Shown piece after piece: positions 32,605 through 58,746 of a stretch of DNA of 64,000 nucleotides (position 1 is the stretch's first letter; the number at the start of each line of letters is the position of its first letter). The translations under genes were made by a program, and so were the position numbers. This DNA is from Microbotryum violaceum. Its lineage: Eukaryota. The notes under the pieces are model-generated. The model searched no databases, was not told where the DNA came from, and saw only the letters and a program-made list of their open reading frames with translations. Location: the NCBI GenBank assembly GCA_001244265.2, contig CDLV01000009.1, positions 248,001 to 312,000 of the forward strand. Reading direction: 5' to 3'.

Positions 32605-33141
32605 GGCTGGGTAGATTCTCCACAACGTGGGCCGATGGTTTCTGGCACGGGCTCGGGAACCAATAGTGAACGGTGTCGGGACGTCGGTGCGGCACTTCCC
32701 CCCAGCACAAGCCTAGACCGACTTGGCGCAGGAGCGGTAGGCGAGTGCTACCTTGCTCGTTGGGATCTAGAATCATAAACTGCATCATTCCATCATCATT
32801 TCATCGTTAGATTTTTGTGTTTCTTTCAAAAAAGGGCATAGGTGGCACCAGTCGCGTGTACTAGTTCATCCCGGCCATGGTCGCGGTGCTACGTTTCGGT
32901 GAGGGTCCCTGAAAAGCTGTGAGTAAGCAAATCACATTGGCGTGCGAGACTTCCTCTTCTGACCCAAAATGGTAATGCGTATGATACATGGTTGCAATCG
33001 ACTTGGTCGCTACGACATCACTACTCCTCAGCCCACATCGGGGAGATCATCCCCTTCCCCCAATCCCGCCACTCTCATCGCGATGACGTGCCCTCTCCCA
33101 ATACCCCCGCTCCGGAGTCCCATTAAATAGAACCCATGTCC

Positions 33142-33640
33142 CTAAAATCGATGCCTTGGGATCTCGGACGTCGTTGTCGGCGGTGCAGACGAGTGGCTCC
33201 CAGTTTCGGCGACGAACGCTGATTCCGACTTGACCTTGGCCTCGTCCTGGAGATTCAGGGCGACGGCAGTGGGGAGCCATACAGCAAATCGCGGTGATTA
33301 GATTGCAAGGATGAAAGAGTCGGGGATCAGCAGTGGCTCCGCGAGTGAGCCCGGTGCCGACAACGATCGCGAGAGGGCTTACGTCCAAGTGCTTCTTCCA
33401 CGCCTCCTCTCCAGCCTGCATGGTATCGGTGTGAATCCTGTACATCCCATACAGACCGTCTGAAGCCCCCCAAAGTGGTTGAAACAAGATGCCGTGTCAG
33501 CCAGTAGGACAGGGTCATCGAGGCCCCGTTCCCGAAGCGCCTCTCGGGTGGGATGACGTACAGACGGACAGGCCGGCCAGGCCCGTGACGAGTGTACGGT
33601 GTGCGATGTCGGCCAGACCTAATCGAGCGGCTCCAGACAT
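33142..33640 (-). CDS. Small single-TM protein, COX14-like (three exons inferred)
   Basis: MSGAARLGLADIAHRTLVTGLAGLSV resembles the Cox14-family N-terminus; GTAAGC donor and CCAG acceptor lead to a stop at 33142. Confidence 0.55.
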
Positions 33641-34229
33641 TGTTTGTGAATTCAAGCTTGGACTGCAAGGATATGAGTGAAGGTCGCGGGGTTTTCGTGG
33701 TCGGTTGAGGTTGAGGTTGCGAGCCAAACGGCGATGAGACTTCCGCGCCGGCGGTCCGACGTCTAATAAGGCTGGGCTTGGGAGAGCTTGGACATTATTG
33801 TTTGGGGCGTCAGAAGAAAAAGCACAAAAAGGGAGGAAAAGAAGGAGGTTCACCTCATTGTAGCTTCTAGTCCACATCTTCAAAGCCTGCATTGTTCATT
33901 GCACTCAACACTGCTGACCGAAGCTTGAACACGCTTTGAAGTGAGGCCGCTGCGATCGGGACCGCCCACCTGATTCTCAAGTTTAGACAACCCATCTACG
34001 TGGACCTGGTATACGTGTACTGGCTACACCGAGGATTTGTGACTTCGGGCACGTGGTGTGGCAAGAGAGTACGGCCATGTAGCTCATGTGTTTGTCTGTC
34101 GTTCTTCCCTTTTTTCCCTTGTTTCTTCTTCGTCTTCTTCCTTTCTTCTCTTTTCTCTCCTTCCTTCCTTTCTGTGGTTTTCCCGTACTTTCTTCTTTTC
34201 TTTTTCCGCTTCGCCGGCAACTCCCTAAA

Positions 34230-34400
34230 TATGGGTGGGGACCCGAAAATTAAGACGGAGGACGACGATGATAACACAAATCGCTCGCGAGATGCGAGAA
34301 ACGGGCCGGTGCGGTGTCCACCAATCCGATACTTGGATCCAAATGCCCCAGTCAAGCGGTTACTGGTTCCCAGAAGACAAATGAGAGAGAGAGAACGCAA
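34230..34400 (-). mobile_element. Degenerate 3'UTR relic of an L1-like element (family C-like)
   Basis: Shares GATGATAACACAAA..GATGCGAGAAAC..GTCCACCAATCCGATAC..CAAGCGGTT..AATGAGAGAG with 37200-37350 and 51080-51230. Confidence 0.8.
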
Positions 34401-34649
34401 GAAAGGGAAAAAAATTCTTTGTAGAATCTCTTCGTCCTATCACCCCCACTTCCTATTGACCCGAATTCCTTCTTCCCCTAATTAAGGGGTTTTCTTTTGC
34501 TTTTTCCTGACTTTGCGACCGTGATAACTGAATTCTCACGGCATTTCTCTGCTGATCACAACGACTGCAAATAGCTACCCTCTTGGTTATGAGCTGATGT
34601 ATCAAATAGTACAGAAGTCGAGAATCCGATGGCGTTTTTGTCCTTTCGC

Positions 34650-34778
34650 TCTTTTGAAACTCATTGCTAGTTTGCCTTCTTTTTTTGGGGGGTTGTAGAA
34701 ACTGTTTATCATATTTATGAGGCGCCGTTGCTAACACGAGCGCCGCAGAAAAAAGAAAAAAGAAATGCGCGCCGCGCG

Positions 34779-34819
<41 letters not shown>
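34650..34819. mobile_element. Mosaic of very short L1-like 3'-terminal stubs, ending in a plus-strand poly(A) tail (34779-34819)
   Basis: TGAAACTCATTGCTAGTTTGC resembles the family B end (43201); TGTAGAAACTGTTTATCATATT resembles the family C end (51029); 34711-34740 is the near reverse complement of 37148-37177. Confidence 0.65.
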
Positions 34820-34822
<3 letters not shown>

Positions 34823-37082
34823 TCCTCGTCCTCGACTCGGATGTTGCCCCTCGGGAGCAGTCGGGAGGAGCAGTCGGGAGCAGTCGGGAGCTCTGAAGCT
34901 TTGAGTCGCCGAGTGGCTGAGAGGTGACGAGTCTCCGTCTGCTTCGGTCCCCTTGAGTGCCCAACGCCCCGAGATGGCTACGTTGCCGCCTGTTCTCACC
35001 CACCTTCAAGACGGCGATCAGCATGCCCTAGGGACGGAAGTCGGCGACGAAGTGCTGGACGAAGAAGCCAAGACAGCGCTATTCGAAGAGATCCGAGTTC
35101 AAGGTTTCCAATCTAATGCTCTTGAGATTGAGGAGGCGCGGCGGAGATATTGGTCGCTGTTCGATGGTCGGAAGAGAACCTTGCAATGTGACAGCTTTTC
35201 AAATCATACCCTATCGCTCGCTAGCTGGAATTGATGGTCCAAGCTGGGCCTCATCCGAGTGACAAAGTGACAGCCGCGCAGTGTCGCCGATGCGCCGATC
35301 ATCTCTGTCTCGCACAAGAGTCAAGATTTGGTACATGCTACAGATTTTATCTATAGTTTCAATCCGAACTCGCTAGTCTACAACGCAAGGTTAGTCTCGT
35401 GGCCGCGGGGGACAAGAGGTTCGTTCCGAGCGTCGAAGGGAAAAAACCTCCGAAGGCGCGTTCGACAAGGCGGGGTAGCAAGGCGAGTGAGATCTTCTGG
35501 AGGTTCGGTCGAAGAGCTAACGGTAGCATGTTCCCTTGAATCGGCAAGTGATTGCATCTGCTGCTCAATCACCTGCCTTGGCTGTCGCTTCGGACCAAAG
35601 TTCGGTGGCGGAGGTAACGTTTCCTCCTCTGATCCCTCTTCGGATCTGAACTGAGAATCATCCCCTGAATCCTTTGCTTCCCCGCAAAGATGTCCTGAAC
35701 TTGAGGACTCTCCGCACTTGATTCCGAAAGTCCCGACGAAGGTGATTCATCCTCGCTCGCTTTGTTGTCGTCGTCGTCCCGGCAGATCAACACTTGCGCT
35801 CTTCCCCAGTCTTCCTCTTCTTCTGCTTGCTCCCCACTTGCAAATCTTTGCACGCCCTTGCCCTTCCTGCTCTCCTCCTTACTAGCGGGCATCAAGTGCA
35901 TCGCTTCGGCGGGGGAGGGGGAGGGGGCGTGCGAAGAAGATTTATCGAGCCCTAGCTGAGTGCTACTCAGCCGGCCACGCGCCGAGCGTACCGCTGGTTT
36001 CAAGAGCCCACCCCCATTGCGATCATTCGCATGTACCGGAGATGATCGCGACGTCCTTGCGTCGCTCGAGGTCATCGGCTAAAAGCCGGGTCGGGCGATG
36101 GCGCGGCGGGAGCTGGATGACGGGTGGTCGAGGCGCGACTCGACGACTGCAAAAGAGTTGAGCTCGATCCCTTGAGGATGTGGAAAGAGTCGAGCCGGAT
36201 TTGAAGGTATTTGACCAGCCGTTAACGTAAGCCCAAGGCACATTGTCCCGGATCTAGTCTACGAAAGCGAGAGCCGAGGAATCAGCAATGGGACACAGAA
36301 CAAGGGGCGGCCAACGGCCAAGGTGAATCGACGAGACTGACCTGTTTCCTCAAGACCCAGGTTATGAGAGTTGATCAGCTCCAGATATGTTGCTGGACCT
36401 CGTTTCTCGGCCGCGACCCTAGCTTCCGTCTTGCCGAAAGCCATCGCGCGTTGTTCAATTGAGCGTAGATCGGCTCGGCGAGCTTCGATTTTGGCAGCCA
36501 TGGCAGCGAATTGTGTTTCATTTTCTGGAGCGTTACCACCATGTTCATCATTTCGAGCTGTTGAGCTGGAGTGAGTGAAGCTTGAGGTTGAGGTTGAGTC
36601 TGAGCGGGCGGTTGAGCAACGAGAAAAGGAGGGCGCGAATGGGCCTAAGAACAGTCGGGCGCTCGCCCCACCACGCGCTCGATACGTTGTTGTACCAAAA
36701 GAGGTGCATCGCCAGCAGTTGCAGCGCCAAAATAAGAGGCCGTATCGGAATTCAAGGCCAAGCTGAACAAATTGTCGGTCGAACCAGATGTTGATCCGTT
36801 CATGTTCATTGGGAGAGGCGAGGGGAAGAGAGTGGCAGGAGGAAAAGAGGCAAATCCAGGCCGAACTCGAGGCGGTTGCCTGGGCGCTGGGTGCGGGAGG
36901 GTGCGGGCCTCAGGGCCAAGCAGCACTGCAGCAGTAACAGCAGCAGGCTCAGCTAGGTGGGTGCAGAAGAGCTGATAGCTACAAATGAGACTCATGAGAG
37001 CTTTCTCTGTCCCATGGATTGGAGGGAAGTCGTGCCATGCCATGGGTCATGACGGACGACCTTGCGGCATGACTGTGTTGTG

Positions 37083-37083
<1 letters not shown>

Positions 37084-37113
<30 letters not shown>

Positions 37114-37800
37114 CTCTTCTCTCGTCTTTTTTTTTTTCGCGCGAAACTCGTGTTAGCTCCGGCGCCTCATACATATTGCCCCAATTCCTCTGATTGGCCT
37201 ACGGAAAAATTAGATGGAAGTCGACGGTGATAACACAAACCGCCCGCAAGATGCGAGAAACGCGCCAAGTCCGGTCCACCAATCCGATACTTCGGATTCA
37301 AGTGCCCCGCCAAGCGGTTGCCCCCCCCCCCCCGGGAGATGAATGAGAGAGGGAAGGAGAGAAAGAGAGAGAGAAACGAAAAGAACTAGCTTACTAACGA
37401 CAAGAGGCCCACCCCGCTGCCACTTCCCAACTCGGTCGAGACAAAGACAGGAGAGCGACTGCGCAGCTACCCTGATCCGCGAAGTCCCAAGTCTATGCTC
37501 GGTCACAACAAGACCGGGTGGGGACCCCTCAAAACCCTCTACCTCAGCAGTCCCTGGCCCTCAAAGCCCACTTCTGCCCCCCCCCCCCCCACGGTTGCTC
37601 CCTCCCAGAGACGAATGAAAGGAAGATTGAAGATAGTACAAAAGGAATCGGGAAACGATGGAGGAGTTGTTGGTGGTGGTACATGTGTTGTACAGACGAA
37701 TCCGATCATAGTTGACAGTTGAACCTTCTTCGATCTTTTGACTTCAGCCCCCCCCCCCCTGAGACCGCCATACCTCTCTCCTTGAAGCCCCTTAATTTTT
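37084..37800 (-). mobile_element. 5'-truncated chimeric L1-like 3' fragment with poly(A) tail
   Basis: T-tract from 37084; 37167-37575 resembles the family C 3'UTR (51041-51451); 37590-37797 resembles the family B 3'UTR (43508-43706); joined at a poly-C run. Confidence 0.85.
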
Positions 37801-40782
37801 TAATTTTTTTTTTTTGACTGGGGCTCATAAATTGCTATCCTTCGGGTTGGCTGGGACCGCTACAAAAAGAGCTAAAGGAGGTTATAAAGCAACGACGGCA
37901 AGCAGTTGGGTGAAAGTCAACCCCCTGCGCGCAAAGAGCGCTGCGCAAATCAAAACCCGCCGAGCACCTAACGCGGACTCCAACGGGCGGTGAGTACTGC
38001 TGCCGCTTCACGTCCCAAGAGCGGGAGCAAAGATACTCGAAAACCAGGCAAGAGCGCCTAGAGAAAGAAGGGGGAGAGTATACAGAAAGTCACGACTGGG
38101 GATACGGAGAACCAGGAATACTAAGACAGAGAGGAGGGGAACACACCCGAGGGGCCAAGGTAGGGGTCGAAGCCGGAGGTAGAGGTCCCCAGGGACTAAC
38201 AGACCGCAGCCAAGCCCCAGCTACTCGTCACCCCGACAGCGCCTGATGTCCTCCCTTGGCTGAATCTCGAGTGCTGGCTGTTGAGCCGTCGGGGCCGAGC
38301 GAAAAGCGATCCAATACAACAAAACGAGCCTCGCCTTGACGCGAGGATATTGACCAGAAACGAGCGACCTTCCTTCCCGAGCCATGCCGTAGATCTTGAC
38401 CAACGCGAACGAACGAACCATTCAACGGAATCCAACACACGGCTTAGGAGTAAAAGGAGAAGTGGCTGAAGCGTAGTCAACAACCGAGCAACAGGAACGA
38501 GAAGAGGAAGGGAAGGGAAAAAAGGGGGAAAGGAGAGGGAAAAACTTCACAAAGCCTCCAACGCAAAGATAATCGACCTGGCTTGCCGATCCATCCAAGA
38601 ACTAAAAAACCGCTACTGCGCAAAGTAGAGAGAGAGAGGGAGAGGTGCGCAGCCTTCCACTGCGCAACAAGTTCCAAGACAGTCAGCTTCTAAAAGAGGA
38701 GTCGACCTCCGAAAAAGAAGGGAGGAAAGGAGGGGAGGAAAATGGGAAGGAAGGACTTAACTCGGTCATCACACCTCCCAATCTCGAGCCCCAGGCACAA
38801 AACCCGCTCGAGAGAGAAAATCTCGCTCGAACGCTCTGAGTGCACTGGGGAGCGAGGGAGGGGCCACGACCTTGTCCAGCTCGAACCGCTGATGAACGCG
38901 CCAGCGGAGCAGGTGCAGCCGCTGGAAGCCGATCGCGCAGGCCAGCCGAACCCACATCCATCTCGAGGTCGTTCTCCCACGACCCCACAAAAGGGGAGCC
39001 CCATAGTCAGCTGCTCCGGAGTGAACGTCGACGGATCGACGTCGGTATCCTCGATGCCCAGCTTGTCGAACAGAATGCGAAGCACCCCACCCCAGAAGCT
39101 GGTCGAGTACGCGCACTCGAAGAAGTAGTGCGACACCGTCTCGATGACCGCTGCATCGTTGCCGCAGAACAGACACGTCGGCGAAGAGGCATGACCCTGA
39201 GTATGCTGCCTCTTGCGCGTCGGCGTCACGTCGTACATGAGCCGCCAGTGGGTGTCCTGCTCCACAGCAGACGCAAACCGGTCATGAAGCCATCTCCAGA
39301 AGCGCTTCCTATCGCTCTGAGAAGTCCCATCACGGAAACGCTTGACACGATCCTCCCTCCCTGGGAACCGAACCACGTTCACAAGCCGACGAAGCTTGCG
39401 AATAGTGAACGGTCGGGTGAGCCCAAAGAAGTTGAAGCACCGAGGACGGGGAGCCTCCTTGAGAGGTATCCGAGCAGGTCGCAACGCGGTCTTGGGCAGC
39501 AAGGCTTTCGCCTTGAGCAACTGACCCACGCGCGACCACACGTGCTCGTGCTGTAGGGCGGGTTCCTTAGAGTGCTGCCAGAACCCGCGTCGATGACCAA
39601 CCAGAGCCCAGCCCTTCCCTTCGTCCCTCCAGTACAGGTCCGCGATCTGCGCAAACTTCGCCACTGCGTCCGCATCGTCATATGCGTGCTTGGCACCTTC
39701 AGCATAGAGTGAAGGGAGGCGAGGCGGAAGCGAGAGCAATTCGGGGAGCGTAAGGAGTTCGGACTTGATGGTTGGAACTGTGACCCTGGCCGCTGCAACG
39801 ACTGCCCCCCAGCGCGTCGAGTCGCGATACAGCTTCTCGACCCGAGCCGTGCTGCTGAAGAACCCCCACGGACTGAAATCGCGGGTCGCAGCGACGAGGG
39901 ACCTCCAGCTCTCGCGAGCTAGGGGCGCCCAGATCGCCTCGTTCGAGCCCGCCACAGCATCCCAAAATCGAAGCGCCACCGAATGAACGATGTCGCCGAT
40001 TGAAATCAAGCCCAAGCCACCGTCCTCCCGAGCCTGGAACACGAAATCGCGAGCGACGGTATTTCGCCCTGCTCCTCCCCAAACAAAATCCGTAAGTGCT
40101 GTCTCCGCCGCCTTAATGAACCATTGAGGCGGTATGTCGAAGGACAGCACGTGGAGGACCGTCGAGATGATGTGAGCGTTGGCATAGAAGACCTTCCCAC
40201 TCGGCGAAAGTGTCCGGTCTCCAGCGGCGCGGGTCTTGGCCTTGATCCTGTCAAGAACATGGGTCCAAAACAGTTTCGAGTCACCGTGGCGAAAGAAGGC
40301 ATAGCCGCACCACTTGAAGCTCTCCCCTCCTGCACCGTTGGCAGCGCCGCGCAGTCTCGTCCCGAAGCCAGTTCGGTCCGAGTGGTAGCACCAGCGTCTT
40401 GTCCGTGTTGGTCTTCCCGTTGGTTGCCTCGTACCACGTCTGCGACAGCGTTTCCAGCTTCGACAATGCCGCCGGTGACTCCACTACCACCACAGCATCG
40501 TCGGCAAACGCCAGATGCGTAAGCTGCGCACGCGGCCCCCCTGGCCACACCTTAGTAGAAGTCAATGTGACCGTGCACCAGTCCGCCCGCCATGGCTCCC
40601 AATGTGTGGTAGAACCACCGCCGGTGTGACTTGGGTGCACCGTCATATTGACTTCTACTGTCCCCTTCAATTGATTAAACAACTGAAGCCAACCAACTTA
40701 ATCAATTGTTCAACTCGTGACCGATCTTAGTTTGCCTTGCGGCAGTGACAGACGCTACCAAATTGGAAAACAAAGGAAAGTT

Positions 40783-40854
40783 TGGCTGAACTGAGAATTG
40801 AACTCAGGTCCACTCTATTAATCAGAGTTGCTCTGACCGCTGAGCTACTCAACC
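40783..40854 (-). tRNA. tRNA-like cassette/pseudo-tRNA, copy 1 (apparent anticodon TTA in a non-canonical loop)
   Basis: GGTTGAG TA GCTC AGCGGTCA GAGC A ACTCT GATTAAT AGAGT GGAC CTGAG TTCAATT CTCAG TTCAGCC A folds into a full cloverleaf with A and B boxes; TTTT follows downstream. Confidence 0.75.
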
Positions 40855-41087
40855 AGTAGGAATAGATGAATATGACGGTGCACCCAAGTCACACCGGCGG
40901 TGGTTCTACCACACATTGGGAGCCATGGCGGGCGGACTGGTGCACGGTCACATTGACTTCTACTGTCCCCTTCAATTGATTAAACAACTGAAGCCAACCA
41001 ACTTAATCAATTGTTCAACTCGTGACCGATCTTAGTTTGCCTTGCGGCAGTGACAGACGCTACCAAATTGGAAAACAAAGGAAAGTT

Positions 41088-41159
41088 TGGCTGAACTGAG
41101 AATTGAACTCAGGTCCACTCTATTAATCAGAGTTGCTCTGACCGCTGAGCTACTCAACC
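41088..41159 (-). tRNA. tRNA-like cassette/pseudo-tRNA, copy 2
   Basis: Identical to 40783-40854, offset by 305 bp. Confidence 0.75.
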
Positions 41160-42399
41160 AGTAGGAATAGATGAATATGACGGTGCACCCAAGTCACACC
41201 GGCGGTGGTTCTACCACACATTGGGAGCCATGGCGGGCGGACTGGTGCACGGTCACATTGACTTCTACTACCTTCTGCAGGTCGAGCGCGATCCCGCGCC
41301 GAACGAGGGCGTCGAGGAAGGGCTGGAACGTGATGTTCCAAACCGGGCACGAGAGGGGATCCCCCTGACCGAGACCACACAGCAACCGCACCAACTCCGT
41401 GGGGAACCCATTGATGAGGTAGCGCACCCCAGAGTCTCGGGATCGTACAGAGCGCGCAGCAGGGAAATGAAACGCTCACCAAAGCCAAAGGCCTCGAAGA
41501 CGTCGAAGATCCATGCGTGATCGACCCGATCGTACGCGCTCTGCTGATCCAAGGACAAGAGGGCGCCCTCGGGGAAAACTTCAGTGCCTAGCGACTTGAG
41601 TTTTTCGAGAAGGAGAGTGAGATGACTTCCCGCGTCTGCTGAACGTCTTGATGGCATGAACCCGTGTTGCGCCGGCGGCAAAAGCTCGCCGAGCACCCCA
41701 TTGAGTCGCGCCACCAAGACCTTGCTGAGGACCTTGTAGGTTGTCTCGCGCAGTGTGATCGGTCGATATGCCCCAGTGATTTCAGATTGGCCCCCGGTTT
41801 GTTCTTGGGCAAAAGCCGCACCAGCCCCTCTGCCAAGGACGCCGTCATTTTGCCGCCCTCCCAAATCGAGTTGAACAAGTCCAACAGCTTGGGAGCGAAG
41901 TAGGTCGGCAGCGCCTTGAAAAGCTCATACGGAATGCCCGAAGGCCCCGGTGATCGCCCTGAATCCGTCTTCTTCAACGCCGCTTCGACCTCGGAAAGGT
42001 TGAAGGGCTCGTCAAGCGCCACTCTGGCTTGAAGGGGCAGCCGACGACCGAACGTAGGGTCCGAGCGGTCGTCATCGTAGCATTTCGCCGCGCGAATAGG
42101 GTCGAGCAGGGACCGACGTGGGTTCGTCGGGTCGCCACGAGCTGGGTCCGGCGTGAAGAGCGACTGTGCGTGCCGTGAAGCAATACCCAGCGCCTCCTGC
42201 ATGTCAACGGTCTCGGTGCCATCCACATCCTCCAGCGAGACGATGCTCGTCTGGCGACTCCGGCGGTTGAGACGCGTGCGAATGCTTGCCGATTGACCTT
42301 CCCTCGAGTCGACTGACGGCACATGCGCACGAATGCGCAGCCACTGAGCCTCCTTTACCGCCAACTGATCCAACTGCGACTTGGCGAGAGCATAAGCAA

Positions 42400-43178: not shown

Positions 43179-43182
43179 GCAA

Positions 43183-47700: not shown

Positions 47701-48764
47701 TTCGTCCAGTCGATAATATCGAAGGGGCTCAGCACCCGACGAGACTCAATGTCCTGCAGTCGAGATACCAGCATCATTTCGAGGGCGTTGCGCTCCCGAA
47801 ACAGACGCCGAGACAGCTCGAGAGCTTGGACCCGAGACTCCGAGAGTACGCGCTGAAGGTCCGCGACCGGATCCCCAGACGGTGCCTGCTCAAGGAGACG
47901 AGTGACGAACTCCTTAAACTCGGCGTGTCTGAAGGTCGACGAGTTGATGCGGGTCAGAAAATGAGCCGCCTGGGGAAGGCAGAGCTCCTCTTCGACCTCG
48001 GCACCACTTGCGCGCAGCCTAAATGTGACCGTAACCGGTCGATGATCCGACATGGATCGAGAGATATTGTACAGAGTAGAAGCAGAAACGACCCGTCGCT
48101 CGTGTCGCCGCTGCACCAGAACAAAGTCGATGCGCGCGCGCGAAATGAGCTGGCCGTCCTTGCTGAGATGTGGGCGCGTGGTCGCCGGCGACAGTGGGTG
48201 CATGAGCCGAATGGCATCCGTGTACGCCCCGTCGAGCCGAGACATAAGCACAGGCCAGTGGTGGGTGTTCGGGCGGTCCACCTGTTGCGCTCGATCCACC
48301 GCGGGAATAGGGCAGTCGTTCAGATCGCCCGCGATGAACCGAATGTGAGAGGAGACGGTCGCCCGAAAGTGAAGGGAGGTGAAGAAGAGGAGGCGCTCGG
48401 CGGGTTGAACCGGAGCGTAGATATTGTTGAGTTCGACGACGTCCGTCGAACCCCGCACATCGAAGGTGGTCACGAGTAAGCGCCCGCCAAGAGACTGACG
48501 CGTGCGACGATGACCACCGAGAAGAGGAGAAGAGCTTGGAATCAAAGTGAGGCAGTGTTGAGAAAAGTAGGCCTCGCCCTGGTGGGACTGGGCGTACTCG
48601 TGGCGTATGTGAGATTGTCGTGCTTTAGGAACATTATGTTCCTGGAGAAGGATAGCAGAAGGGGGAGGTGTGAGCGAAGTGAGATACGAAAGAAGCAGAC
48701 GACGTCGTTCAGGGGTATTGAAGCCCCTGTTGACGTTCCAGGTCATGATGATGAACTCAATCAT
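44726..48764 (-). CDS. Family B ORF2: APE endonuclease + reverse transcriptase + Cys motif (frameshifted as assembled)
   Basis: MTWNVNRG, LLQE, NIYAP, AGDLND, RIDFVL, SDHRPV; SPGPSG, YRPITL, QHGFVKGR, GLGQGDPLS, AFADD; CLVQAC..DDFTHFWHDC. Confidence 0.93.
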
Positions 48765-50743
48765 TACGATCGCGCCTTCGTTGCAGCAGCAGCTCCCTTG
48801 ATGGACAACATAGGTCCGAATGTGGGTGACGGGAGAGGGTCCGCAGCAGTCGATTCGTTCCAGTCCGATGTGCGCGCAACGCTGGTGAGACGCTGGATAC
48901 GCTCGGACCGGCGAAGACCCTGGGAAGTTCCTTCTTCCACCTCCTGCTTGGGCTCGGGCTCGGGATCACACACTGGACCTGGAGACGGCGAAGGCATCCA
49001 ACCGGTCACAGACGGGGTGCGGTCCAACTCGGTGATCTCATCGTACAGACCGGCATCCTGTTTGCGCTCGCGATCCGACACACGATTCATCCAGTCGTCA
49101 GGAAGGCCGTCCATATCAAGCTGATGGTGACTGGCCGATCGGAACCGCGTCAGCTCAGGGGTCGTCGAGACAACCTCAGGCATAGACCCCGTCTCGGCCG
49201 ACTGCGATTCCCCTTCTTCCGCGTCACTCGTCTCCGTGTGTTCCTCCTGGTTCCCCTCCGCTCCGCGGTCCTGCAGATCCGACAGATCCGAAGGCTCCAA
49301 CGGCGGCACCTCCTGCTGTGGTTCCAGCTGTGCCTCGACTACGCTCATCGCGTCCTCGTCGTCCTCGAGAGCCTGAGCGGGCTCCCCCTGCGCCTCTTCG
49401 GCCACGTCGCCGGCCAGACTTGCGAATGGGTTTGCGGCGACGATGAAACCGCAAAGGGCGGATGCTGTGAGTGTAGAGCTTTGTGAACGAGCAGGGTAGA
49501 CTCGTGGTGAGTTGTTAGTGGCCCTTGTGGGAGATGCGTTCTTCTTTGAACGCTTGGACGCGACAGGGGACATTGGGGGAGAGGGAGAGGCTACATCACC
49601 TCTGCGTTGTTTTTGGGGGTCGAGGTTTGCTCGATGCTGCTTTGGGGCTCGGCCTGGGGCCTTTGGTTGTTGTTATTTTTCTGGGCGGCCTGCTGACGCT
49701 GGACCGGCTTTTGAACGCAGTTGTCGGAGTGGCCTACAAAACCGCATCGGCGGCAGGAGGCTTCGGCCTCGTAGTCGTGGCGAAGGGGGTGAGAGTTGCG
49801 AGTCGTCCTCGAAGGTCGATCCTCGTCGGTAGAACCTGTCGAAGTTGAGCACCGTTGTTTTTGAACAGATCGTCGTCGTCGAACTGGACGATGGCCGCGT
49901 AGTTTCCTCGAGCAACGAGATACGAGCCTTGAACGACTGTTAGAGGCTGCTGGAGTTGGAGCAAGTCGCATTTGTGGCCGTCCCCGGTAAGCTTGGCGAC
50001 GACGCCTTGCAGTTTGCTCCAGAGGTCGTCATTCGTGTATTCAGCCTCAGGACTGATGATGAAACGCAGTTCGACGACGTTCTTGACGAACGCCAAGCGC
50101 TTGCGGACTTGGGCAAAGGAGCGTTTCCACTCGATCTTGGTCGCCGCGTCGTGGACTTGGTCGAGCGCCGCTGCGCTAGCGCAGCGCACCACGAACTTGA
50201 ACCGGGTGTTGCCGTTTTGGATGATCGACTCCGGTGCGACTCCATGGATGACTGGAGCGTATTTCTGGAGCTCGGGGGGAGGACAACTCCTGCGGGCAGG
50301 TTAAAACACAACCACGTGTCGGGCGACAGGGTACGGAGCACCTTCGAGTACAACTCGGACTTCTCGCGTTCAGTGGCCACACCGGTGTGTTCGAACGTGA
50401 CTTCAAGAACGGCACCAGACGTGTCGGCGATTGGTTTCGTTGCATTGAGTGCGCTAAAGCGCAGGGAGGTGGCCCGGTCCTTGCCGAAGCCGAGTGCTTC
50501 TTTGAGCACAAGGATGCGGGTGCCCTGGCGTGTGCCATCTTCGACACTGATCATCTTCAGGATCCTCGCGACATCCTCCTTCCTCTTCTTCTCTTCATCA
50601 CGCTTTTCCTGGTACAGCGCTAGGCCGGGATTCCCTGGTCCCTCGGCGGCATCGGCCTCCGCCCCCGCGTCACCACGTGGTTGCCCCGTCGCTGCCGGCT
50701 CCGGAGGGCCGCGGCCCGGATCAGGCGGTGCCTGGTCGGACAT
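48764..50743 (-). CDS. Family B ORF1 (gag-like, zinc knuckle, acidic C-terminus; frameshifted as assembled)
   Basis: ATG 50743 MSDQAPPDPG; ATSLRFSALNA shared with family C; LRHDYEAEASCRRCGFVGHSDNC; stop TAA overlaps the ORF2 ATG. Confidence 0.85.
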
Positions 50744-55505: not shown

Positions 55506-57632
55506 TCGCCAACCGGCATCGCCGCCGCCGCTGACATCGACCTCGTCACCCTCCGCCCCTCTGTTCCATCCTTGACAACGACGCGGCTCTTCCCTTTGAT
55601 GATCACTCGCTTGGCGTCGGTCGGTTCGTCACTCGGGTCACTGAGGTCCGCCGCAGTCTGCGACCTCTTCATTACCGGCTTTTTGAACTTCGAAGCGGTC
55701 CCCCTGATATTGATGGAACGTATCTCACCGTCCTCATCCCACGTGGCAAAGTTGTGACGCACCAAAGGGGTTTCAGCGTCGAGCCTCCTCTCGATGCTTT
55801 GGTCCCGCTCGAGTCGTGCCTGCTCAACCCAGTTAGCTCTGATCCTGTCCCACTCCTCCCCTCGCGAAGCGACTTGGCAAGAGTTTCGGGTGACAAAGGT
55901 GGGGTTGGTTCGTGGGGTGTCGATTCGCGGGAAGCGGTGGCGGCGGTTGCTGTTGCGTCGCTGTCGTCGTCATTGCCCAGCCTGTTCGTCTCCCCTAAGT
56001 CCGTCGCTTCCGCGTTCTCCGCTTTCGTCGCTCCCCCTGCCTCGTCCACATCGTCCACCTCCGTCGCCACCTCCTCTTCCTCCATCTCCGTCGCCACCTC
56101 CCTTTCCTCCATCTCCGTCGCCACCTTGCCTTCTGTTTCGCCCCTTCCATCCGCCATCACCTCATCCTCATCAATCACCTCTCCATCGGATCCTCCGCAG
56201 TCCTCTAAAACCGACTCGTCCTCGCTCTTAAGTATGATGGCCTCCGTTTTCACGGTCGCCTCTGATTCCATCTCCGAGTCCTCCGAGTCCTCGTCATCCG
56301 CCTTATCACCAGCGTCCTCCTCCCCGATTCCTCTGGCCCCTGTCCGCTCTGGCCAGTTACCGCTTCCTCCTGTCCCTCCTCAACCTCGAGCCCGGCGAAG
56401 CGATTCTGTGATGCGATCCTGTTAACAACCGGCACAGGAATGGGGGCCTCGGCCTCCGCAATGTTGGTGTCGTTGGTGATGGTGTTCTTGTTGGCGTTGG
56501 TGTTGCCGTTGCCGTTGCCGTTGTGAGCCTCCTTTCGCTTGCTCTCCTGATCCAGTCCGCAGGTTCCCACGTGACCAACGAAGTGGCACCTACCGCAAGC
56601 CGCCTCCTTCTCATAGTCATGGCGAAGGGCGGTGACCGGGATGCCTCGAGTGGGAAGGCCGATTCTCGAAGGTAGGATCTCTTTCAAGGTCGTGTTAGGG
56701 CGTTTGAACAGGGAGTCGTCATCGAAGTGTAGGAAAGCTGAGTAGTCTCCGGCAACGTGGGCAAAGGCCGAGGCGTTGTCCACGCTGATAATGCGCAGAA
56801 CCTGCACAAGTTGGCACGAATGTCCCTTGCCTGACAAGTCCTGCACTAGTAATTGGAACGATTTGATGATGGCATCCATGGAAGGCACTCCTTGAACACC
56901 GACGTTGATTCGAAGCTCGACCATGTTATGGTGGAACCTGTGAGATTTCGCGAAGCGGGCCTTCGCCGATCGCCAAGTGAGAGCAGGGGGCGTCGTAAGC
57001 GCAGCGTCACGTGCCTCGCCGGTGACGAACCCAACCGTAACGCGATGGTGAGCCGCCCCATTACGCAGGATTGATGAATGTTGTACGCCTAGGATCTGTG
57101 GTCGATAGGCTGCAAGGTGGTCCGGCAGAGGAACTCCAGGCTCAAAGCAGATAGGAGAGATCGGCGATAACAGCCTCGTGACGCAGGCCACGAGATCGGT
57201 CTTGTCGGCATGAGACGCTCGCGAGGCGCTTTGGTGAGACAGAGTCACTTCAAGGGCGTAATCAAAGATGTTCTCGACAGACCGGTTCGCGTTCAAGGCC
57301 GAGAATTTCAGCGATGTGGCGGTGGCGACGGGGTAGAGTTCGGCGAAGTAGATGGCCTGGACCCAACGATCCATGCGGTTTCCGGGTACAGCACCCATGG
57401 CTTGTAGGAGGCTGCCCAAAGCCTTGGCACGCTGTTGTTGTTGTTGCTGTTGTTCAGGTGACTGAGTCGCCTGACTCGCAGCGGCGGCATAGTTGGGTGC
57501 GGCGGTGGCGGGGCCCGTGACTTGGGTCTTCTTCGAGCTTATCGGGATCTGGTCGCCGGGTGGCTGGACGCTGGTGGCGGACACCGGTGGTGGCGGTGCC
57601 GGCGGTGGGGACCCAGGGTCTCCTGTAGACAT
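55472..57632 (-). CDS. Family C ORF1 (gag-like, zinc knuckle, acidic region; frameshifted as assembled)
   Basis: [45 protein letters not shown]; colinear with family B ORF1. Confidence 0.88.
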
Positions 57633-57688: not shown

Positions 57689-57729
57689 GAAGTGAAGTGA
57701 AGTGAAGTGAAGTGAAGTGAAGTGAAGTG
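57689..57729. repeat. Microsatellite (GAAGT)8 at the 5' end of element C
   Basis: Read directly; followed by a T-tract at 57732-57744. Confidence 0.97.
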
Positions 57730-57796
57730 GATTTTTTTTTTTTTCCGTTTTAGCTATATAACGGGCCTTGTGGCCACCAATTTCACAGATTGCATG

Positions 57797-57868
57797 TCCT
57801 TCGTGGGACAACGGTTAGCCTTTCGCGTTTTCACCGCGGCGATCCGGGTTCGATTCCCGGCGGGGGAG
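57797..57868 (+). tRNA. tRNA-Glu(TTC)
   Basis: TCCTTCG..TCGCG TTTTCAC CGCGG..CCGGG TTCGATT CCCGG CGGGGGA G cloverleaf, 72 nt, Glu-type TCC/GGAG ends; one D-stem mismatch. Confidence 0.9.
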
Positions 57869-57869
57869 A

Positions 57870-57878
57870 TTTTTTTTT
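57870..57878 (+). terminator. RNA polymerase III oligo-dT terminator of tRNA-Glu
   Basis: T9 run starting 2 nt after the tRNA 3' end. Confidence 0.85.
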
Positions 57879-58459: not shown

Positions 58460-58746
58460 AGAGTCGCCCTTGCGATCAGCTTCGAGGGCAAAGCCAACGA
58501 CATCATGGGACCATCACTCAACCAACACAACCCCCGAACTGCTAACCCGTCGCTCTCGGGCTGCTCACTGGAGATCACAATTAACTCAATCGGACTTCTT
58601 GGTCAACTCGATCTTCTCGAGTCAATTGTGATCTCCAGTGAGCAGCGCAAGACCGACGGGTAGGCAGTTCGGGGGTTGTGTTGGTTGATTGATGGTCCCT
58701 TGATGTTGTTGGCTTTGCCCTCGAAGCTGATCGTAAGGGCGAGTCT
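58460..58746. repeat. Long inverted repeat (about 128 bp arms, about 31 bp spacer)
   Basis: 58460-58587 is the reverse complement of 58619-58746 with scattered mismatches. Confidence 0.92.

Follow-up and report, generated by a model that had tools for sequence, protein, structure and literature searches.

A head-to-tail array of dead L1-like LINEs upstream of a tRNA-Glu gene in Microbotryum violaceum is probably explained by insertion into poly-A tracts

We report that a 64-kb stretch of Microbotryum violaceum DNA (referred to as the window, i.e., the whole of the sequence analysed) carries an array of approximately 20 kb (37084-57744, minus strand), which consists of six head-to-tail L1-like LINE units arranged in the order C, B, B', A', A and D as counted from a tRNA-Glu gene. 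Our data suggest, with modest confidence, that the array seeded its own growth, being composed of APE-type LINEs of the L1 clade (families A-D) that target poly-A tracts in the manner of Zorro3, and that the first tract to be used was located upstream of tRNA-Glu. Specifically, the units are joined to each other at A-runs, and long A/T tracts are rare elsewhere in the window.

The tRNA-Glu(UUC) gene was predicted at 57797-57868 on the plus strand by both ARAGORN and Rfam (RF00005; 46.5 bits versus a gathering score of 29), and according to the same two programs it is the sole canonical tRNA gene of the 64-kb window. The features at and upstream of this gene are the following (coordinates, strand, description):

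57870-57878, plus strand: T9 Pol III terminator of tRNA-Glu, taken from the sequence and the run list; no LINE is inserted in it
57745-57796, plus strand: 52-bp spacer from the T tract to tRNA-Glu, containing TATATAA at 57755-57761
57732-57744, minus strand: T13 run (A13 on the sense strand of the element), directly upstream of unit C and ending at -53 from tRNA-Glu
57689-57729, minus strand: (GAAGT)8.2 when read on the plus strand, (CACTT)8 in sense, forming the 5' end of unit C (TRF, 100% matches)

The dinucleotide GA at 57730-57731 separates the T13 run from the (GAAGT)8.2 microsatellite. The ORF1 start codon of unit C is positioned at 57632, 56 nt beyond the microsatellite, and ORF1 reads away from tRNA-Glu. 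Since the N-terminus of this ORF1 aligns with annotated ORF1 proteins of Microbotryum from residue 1 onward, it is the 5' end of unit C that faces the tRNA gene. The original prediction placed the array head-to-head with tRNA-Glu, with the end of unit C and the adjoining T tract 68 and 53 bp upstream, respectively. This geometry was confirmed: unit C, a minus-strand element, has its 5' end toward tRNA-Glu on the plus strand, and the distances are 57797 - 57729 = 68 and 57797 - 57744 = 53. The tract itself, implied to be 15 nt (57729 to 57744), measures 13 nt (57732-57744). That the 52-bp spacer might represent a much shortened LINE 3' end was considered and rejected, since by eye it has no likeness to the 3' ends of the four families; we read 57745-57796 as native DNA upstream of the tRNA gene. 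The A13 at 57732-57744 would be either the target tract or the 5' poly-A of unit C.

The array was mapped using tblastn of intact relatives and comparison of the window with itself, and each junction was read. Its components, listed from the tRNA-proximal to the distal end, are:

57731-51028, minus strand: unit C, full-length and dead (tblastn, ORFs)
57632-56250, minus strand: ORF1 of unit C, 460 codons; a frameshift shortens it relative to the 610-aa relative P0048
55515-51680, minus strand: ORF2 remnants of unit C, with 4 breaks between tblastn segments
51679-51028, minus strand: 3' UTR of unit C
51027-51017, minus strand: A11 tail of unit C, which abuts the 5' end of unit B
51016-43350, minus strand: unit B, full-length and dead, opening with a 10-nt leader
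51008-50814, minus strand: (CTTTCAT)28 of unit B, following the 10-nt leader
50743-48764, minus strand: ORF1 of unit B, with one frameshift
48764-44729, minus strand: ORF2 of unit B, with 2 breaks
43349-43340, minus strand: A10 tail of unit B
43339-43198, minus strand: unit B', a 142-bp 5'-truncated copy of the 3' end of B, 99% identical to B
43197-43183, minus strand: A15 tail of unit B'
43182-42412, minus strand: unit A', TT followed by A-family 3' UTR only, 98.3% identical to 37802-38582
42411-42400, minus strand: A12 tail of unit A'
42399-37816, minus strand: unit A, TT followed by a 5'-truncated ORF2 and 3' UTR (tblastn)
40572-41268: insertion that interrupts unit A
37815-37804, minus strand: A12 tail of unit A
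37803-37114, minus strand: unit D, TT followed by a 5'-truncated 3'-UTR unit composed of two modules
37801-37581, minus strand: B-like module of unit D, 89% identical to B
37578-37167, minus strand: C-like module of unit D, 79% identical to C
37137-37114, minus strand: 3' end of unit D, A11 and a 13-nt spacer
37113-37084, minus strand: A30 tail of unit D, the distal end of the array

The existence of an array, as predicted, is thus borne out by three copies of ORF2 that encode APE, RT and zf-RVT domains, along with truncated units, all on the minus strand. Every unit is broken in frame or 5'-truncated, such that none of the six is intact as judged by tblastn. In unit B, the 3' UTR of which is approximately 1.4 kb, the stop codon of ORF1 and the start codon of ORF2 share one base in the sequence TAATG (48762-48766), and the arrangement of these codons suggests that ORF1 and ORF2 may be coupled through termination-reinitiation. 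ORF2 of unit A begins at approximately residue 358 of the relative P0021, to which it is up to 99% identical; P0021 was rejected as an orthologue of the unit A locus because P0021, unlike the truncated unit A, is full-length, and these are therefore different copies.

The three 5'-truncated units A', A and D have TT straight after the preceding A-run (43181-43182, 42398-42399 and 37802-37803), and the A12-TT tail is identical in A' and A. These TT starts could be due to repeated target duplication, non-templated additions, insertion into a tail or duplication at the DNA level.

The RT region of unit A is interrupted by a 0.7-kb insertion (about 40553-41270), which is made up of a 305-bp unit present twice (99% identical) and has inverted arms of 96-97 nt that are 100% complementary. 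In both 305-bp units a minus-strand tRNA-like gene is present (40783-40854 and 41088-41159; 49.9 bits with Rfam), and with the anticodon UUA these would decode the stop codon UAA. The insertion could be a foldback/MITE-like element, a rearrangement or a tRNA-derived repeat.

The ORFs of the array are 92-99% identical to proteins of M. silenes-dioicae, M. saponariae and M. intermedium, and Microbotryum is reported to harbour L1-clade elements. The ORF2 pieces match the Pfam families Exo_endo_phos (AP-endonuclease), RVT_1 and zf-RVT, and intact ORF2 relatives are 1325-1335 aa long, each with all three domains; the closest solved structure to ORF2 in the PDB is human L1 ORF2p (E = 1.9e-25). For ORF1, which is approximately 610-716 aa in intact relatives, no Pfam family was detected even at E <= 1. 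Homology is detected between the ORF1 proteins of family B and family C (31% identity over 113 aa, E = 3e-13), and by eye ORF1 has one conserved Cys-Cys-His-Cys-like, knuckle-like motif, with C349 and C358 nearly invariant. Language-model look-alikes of ORF1 include CCHC and RNA-binding clusters (scores 0.86-0.88), which we take as a lead only, and the AlphaFold model of ORF1 reached a mean pLDDT of 39.6 only, too low for comparing folds.

Each of the six units directly follows an A-run of 10-15 nt, and all six are closed by an A-run (A10-A30), while no duplicated non-A target sequence is visible by eye at any junction of the array. In the 64 kb there are 10 A/T runs of at least 9 nt, i.e., eight LINE tails, the 5' tract of unit C and the tRNA terminator. 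Under a first-order Markov model of the window, 0.39 such runs are expected on average, and the maximum in 100 simulations was 3. With 10 of 10 runs accounted for and 0.39 expected, long A/T tracts in this region are essentially equivalent to LINE borders. According to the run list of the window, no A/T run of at least 9 nt is present inside any unit, including between the ORFs.

In units B and C a family-specific microsatellite (195 nt in B and 41 nt in C) is positioned between the A-run and a unique 5' UTR (70 nt in B and 56 nt in C), and after the microsatellite a similar 11-mer, identified by eye, opens the unique 5' UTR in both. That the microsatellites were the insertion targets, as is the case for microsatellite-specific LINEs, was considered and rejected, since they are present on the 5' side of the units only. 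Speculatively, they might have arisen through slippage at the 5' end of the RNA, or represent repeated initiator-like motifs.

As the best explanation for the array we propose that the elements integrate by target-primed reverse transcription, with A/T homopolymer tracts for targets, in the way of Zorro3 of Candida albicans. Zorro3 is described as an L1-clade LINE with poly-A at both ends, the new insertions of which are found in genomic poly-A tracts, mostly of 9-15 bp, with a bias for promoter regions, and a model has been proposed in which the target tract anneals to both element ends and in this way guides both priming steps; Zorro3 is reported to have a very short 5' UTR and to show no association with tRNA genes (Goodwin et al. 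2007). In the array, the endonuclease would nick the T-strand of a tract, the T flap would prime on the poly-A tail of the element RNA, and the new copy would end up flanked by A-runs on both sides. The first tract would have happened to be in the short region upstream of tRNA-Glu, and the adjacency to tRNA-Glu would be incidental or reflect a general bias for open promoter DNA. The anatomy of the units, the A-runs at all junctions, the scarcity of other tracts and the L1-like ORF2 are observed here; we infer the nicking specificity, the order of the insertions and the native origin of the first tract, and the preference for poly-A targets would here be read from a single fossil locus.

Since tracts are very rare in this GC-rich genome except for LINE tails, each insertion would make the next preferred targets, and these would be on the same strand. 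The strand of the tract would in turn set the orientation of the incoming copy, and as each insertion leaves same-strand tracts, a head-to-tail array of one polarity would be the outcome. Neither the array nor its polarity needs recognition of a tRNA gene, because insertion into poly-A would explain both. The original prediction took the polarity and the distal position of the fragmented units as signs that new copies push older ones outward from the tRNA gene; in our analysis, polarity, head-to-tail order and truncated units would be produced equally well by insertion into A-runs.

The window also contains a second LINE cluster, separate from the array:

34095-34819, both strands: cluster of LINE 3'-UTR debris
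34245-34414, minus strand: C/D-like fragment
34655-34715, minus strand: B-like and C-like terminal fragments of 21-22 nt
34711-34789, plus strand: D-like 3' end, followed by A41
34779-34819, plus strand: A41 tail

This debris, at 34.1-34.8 kb, is present in both orientations with its A41 on the strand opposite to that of the array, and no tRNA or other Pol III gene was detected in 33000-37600 (Rfam, E <= 1), which argues for poly-A targeting and leans against strict tRNA targeting. In other Microbotryum genomes, LINE families are found a few genes apart as judged by the numbering of the gene models (BQ2448_1881/1886 and BQ5605_C028g10581/10590); this numbering fits, if weakly, with LINE clustering being general in Microbotryum.

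The minus strand of the debris cluster 34095-34819 has a purine-rich degenerate tail. Between this cluster and the array is a 2.26-kb segment (34820-37083), which is bordered by convergent LINE tails, A41 to the left and T30 to the right. An ORF in this segment (36259-36909, minus strand) encodes a 95-aa stretch that is 84% identical to proteins on at least five M. silenes-dioicae contigs, and judged from these matches the segment is suggested to be a multi-copy unclassified repeat and not a single-copy host gene. The right flank of the array carries LAA2-like, cyclic phosphodiesterase and PSP-domain genes, and the sequence at 58460-58746 looks like a MITE or a hairpin.

An alternative, which we regard as less likely, is that these families are head-to-head integrators that insert approximately 50 bp upstream of tRNA genes, i.e., a fungal reinvention of TRE5 that possibly combines a Pol III tether with A-run nicking. 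An element protein (e.g., ORF1p) would then tether the RNP to TFIIIB/TFIIIC, and nicking and target-primed reverse transcription would take place approximately 50 bp upstream, alone or together with nicking at A-runs. New copies would enter at the proximal A-run and push the older ones outward, and the A-runs would represent the elements' own 5'/3' poly-A or duplicated tails. The position of the array speaks for this alternative. TRE5 of Dictyostelium, oriented opposite to the tRNA gene, is found at 44-54 bp upstream of the coding sequence of the tRNA (Pol III-targeting review, 2018), and for NLTR-B of Polysphondylium pallidum the range given is 39-64 bp upstream (same review; Spaller et al.). 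The junction analysed here, at -53 for the A-run and at -68 for the microsatellite and likewise in opposite orientation, matches this pattern, and this TRE5 geometry would be a coincidence under pure poly-A targeting. In addition, the two-ORF layout with an APE-RT-Zn ORF2 is the same as in TRE5-A, and members of at least four families are lined up next to the single tRNA gene of the window.

Using published M. lychnidis-dioicae values (26.1 Mb, 134 tRNAs and 392 LINE copies), a LINE 5' end placed at random would fall in one 30-bp, one-orientation interval upstream of a given tRNA with a frequency of ~2e-4, or ~0.03 per genome, figures that take into account neither the post-hoc choice of the locus nor a possible preference for A/T tracts or promoters. 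In this genome a T13 of native origin would itself be improbable, which counts against poly-A targeting and in favour of tRNA targeting. Poly-A targeting is further argued against by the microsatellite that follows the A-run at the start of B and C, which Zorro3 lacks, by the absence of poly-A between the ORFs, unlike in Zorro3, and by the unoccupied T9 terminator 126 bp away. Moreover, tRNA targeting has arisen repeatedly in compact genomes, in dictyostelids at least six times according to Spaller et al., and at 26.1 Mb (M. lychnidis-dioicae) the genome here is compact.

Several observations nevertheless weigh against tRNA targeting. The array is a single locus that was noticed because of its tRNA gene, and all its structural features are covered by poly-A targeting, a mechanism for which there is experimental precedent in fungi with Zorro3. 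In the proximal unit C, ORF1 is truncated and ORF2 has 4 breaks, versus 2 ORF2 breaks in the more distal unit B, and hence decay does not increase with distance from tRNA-Glu; a model in which the youngest copy is nearest to the tRNA gene does not predict that C is more decayed than B, although copies can be defective at birth. In our literature search we found no report of non-LTR elements associated with tRNA genes, either in Microbotryum or in any other fungus, and in the table of the Pol III-targeting review (2018), to the extent available, all non-LTR elements are from dictyostelids. Distantly related LINEs in metagenome contigs were also scanned using an alignment of 12 ORF2 sequences; relatives were encoded by 209 of 562 candidate stretches, of which 80 were kept and 60 of these 80 scanned. 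A divergent upstream tRNA was found at 0 of 60 loci, a result that, at 20-33% identity, says little about the Microbotryum families. Four of the 60 loci have a tRNA, in all four cases on the strand that carries the RT match.

Finally, it is improbable that the units piled up without target preference in a tolerant region of intergenic or repeat-rich DNA, in part multiplied by DNA duplication or unequal recombination and next to tRNA-Glu by chance: the partial duplicates B' and A' with their 99% and 98.3% identity to B and A, the A12-TT tail shared by A' and A (which could reflect DNA duplication), the multi-copy unclassified left flank at 34820-37083, the rearranged inverted duplication within unit A and the fact that all units are dead would be in keeping with such a graveyard, but random accumulation gives no account of six co-oriented units out of six being joined precisely at A-runs without intervening DNA, nor of each long A/T run being a LINE end or the tRNA terminator, and the genes of the right flank are ordinary ones.

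Should insertion into poly-A tracts be the true explanation, the array provides a clear case of how a Zorro3-type rule makes self-seeding LINE arrays of one polarity in a GC-rich genome, which would be useful for the annotation of Microbotryum repeats, if unsurprising. Should tRNA targeting be true, non-LTR retrotransposons targeted to tRNA genes would for the first time be known from outside Amoebozoa, which for fungi would be a notable novelty. LINEs would then have converged on Pol III targeting in fungi as well as in social amoebae, and how a target-primed element reads the Pol III complex could be studied in a second system that is genetically distant from the first.

Comparison with known systems provides some insight into which of these features are shared. 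Human L1 resembles the array in its poly-A tails, its 5' truncation and the joining of copies head-to-tail at these tails; its endonuclease prefers T-rich/A sites, and L1 inserts into poly-A tails that are already present. In contrast to the array, human L1 generates ordinary target-site duplications and has no poly-A on the 5' side, and the array ORF1 is unrelated to it by sequence search (no Pfam match).

TRE5-A (DRE) of Dictyostelium discoideum has an APE-RT-zinc-finger ORF2 as in the array, and both TRE5-A and NLTR-B are APE-type two-ORF LINEs that the review lists under L1. The TRE5 geometry, i.e., -53 and head-to-head, is present at this one locus. For TRE5, association with tRNA genes applies to the whole family, has been reproduced in experiments and is linked to ORF1-TFIIIB contacts, whereas the array represents one locus, with an ORF1 without detectable family. 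Moreover, the host is here a basidiomycete, and LINE debris in the window is found without a tRNA gene.

With Zorro3, the array was compared through the published descriptions of that element. The 5' UTR of Zorro3 is 5 bp and starts in the poly-A, whereas B and C have a microsatellite and a unique UTR of 56-70 nt. The Zorro3 ORFs are separated by poly-A, while those of unit B overlap as TAATG with no internal A-run of at least 9 nt. Zorro3-type ORF1 carries zinc-knuckle motifs and the array ORF1 one knuckle-like motif (by eye) and no Pfam match. Arrays are not mentioned for Zorro3 in the portions of its literature available to us. Zorro3 is further described as having a short 5' UTR, as is the unique part of the 5' UTR in B and C, and a location in intergenic or promoter-side DNA. 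Both are fungal L1-type elements with two ORFs and an APE-RT ORF2, and in both poly-A is present at the two ends, in the array for six of six units; Zorro3 has no ordinary target-site duplication, and in the array none of non-A sequence is visible by eye.
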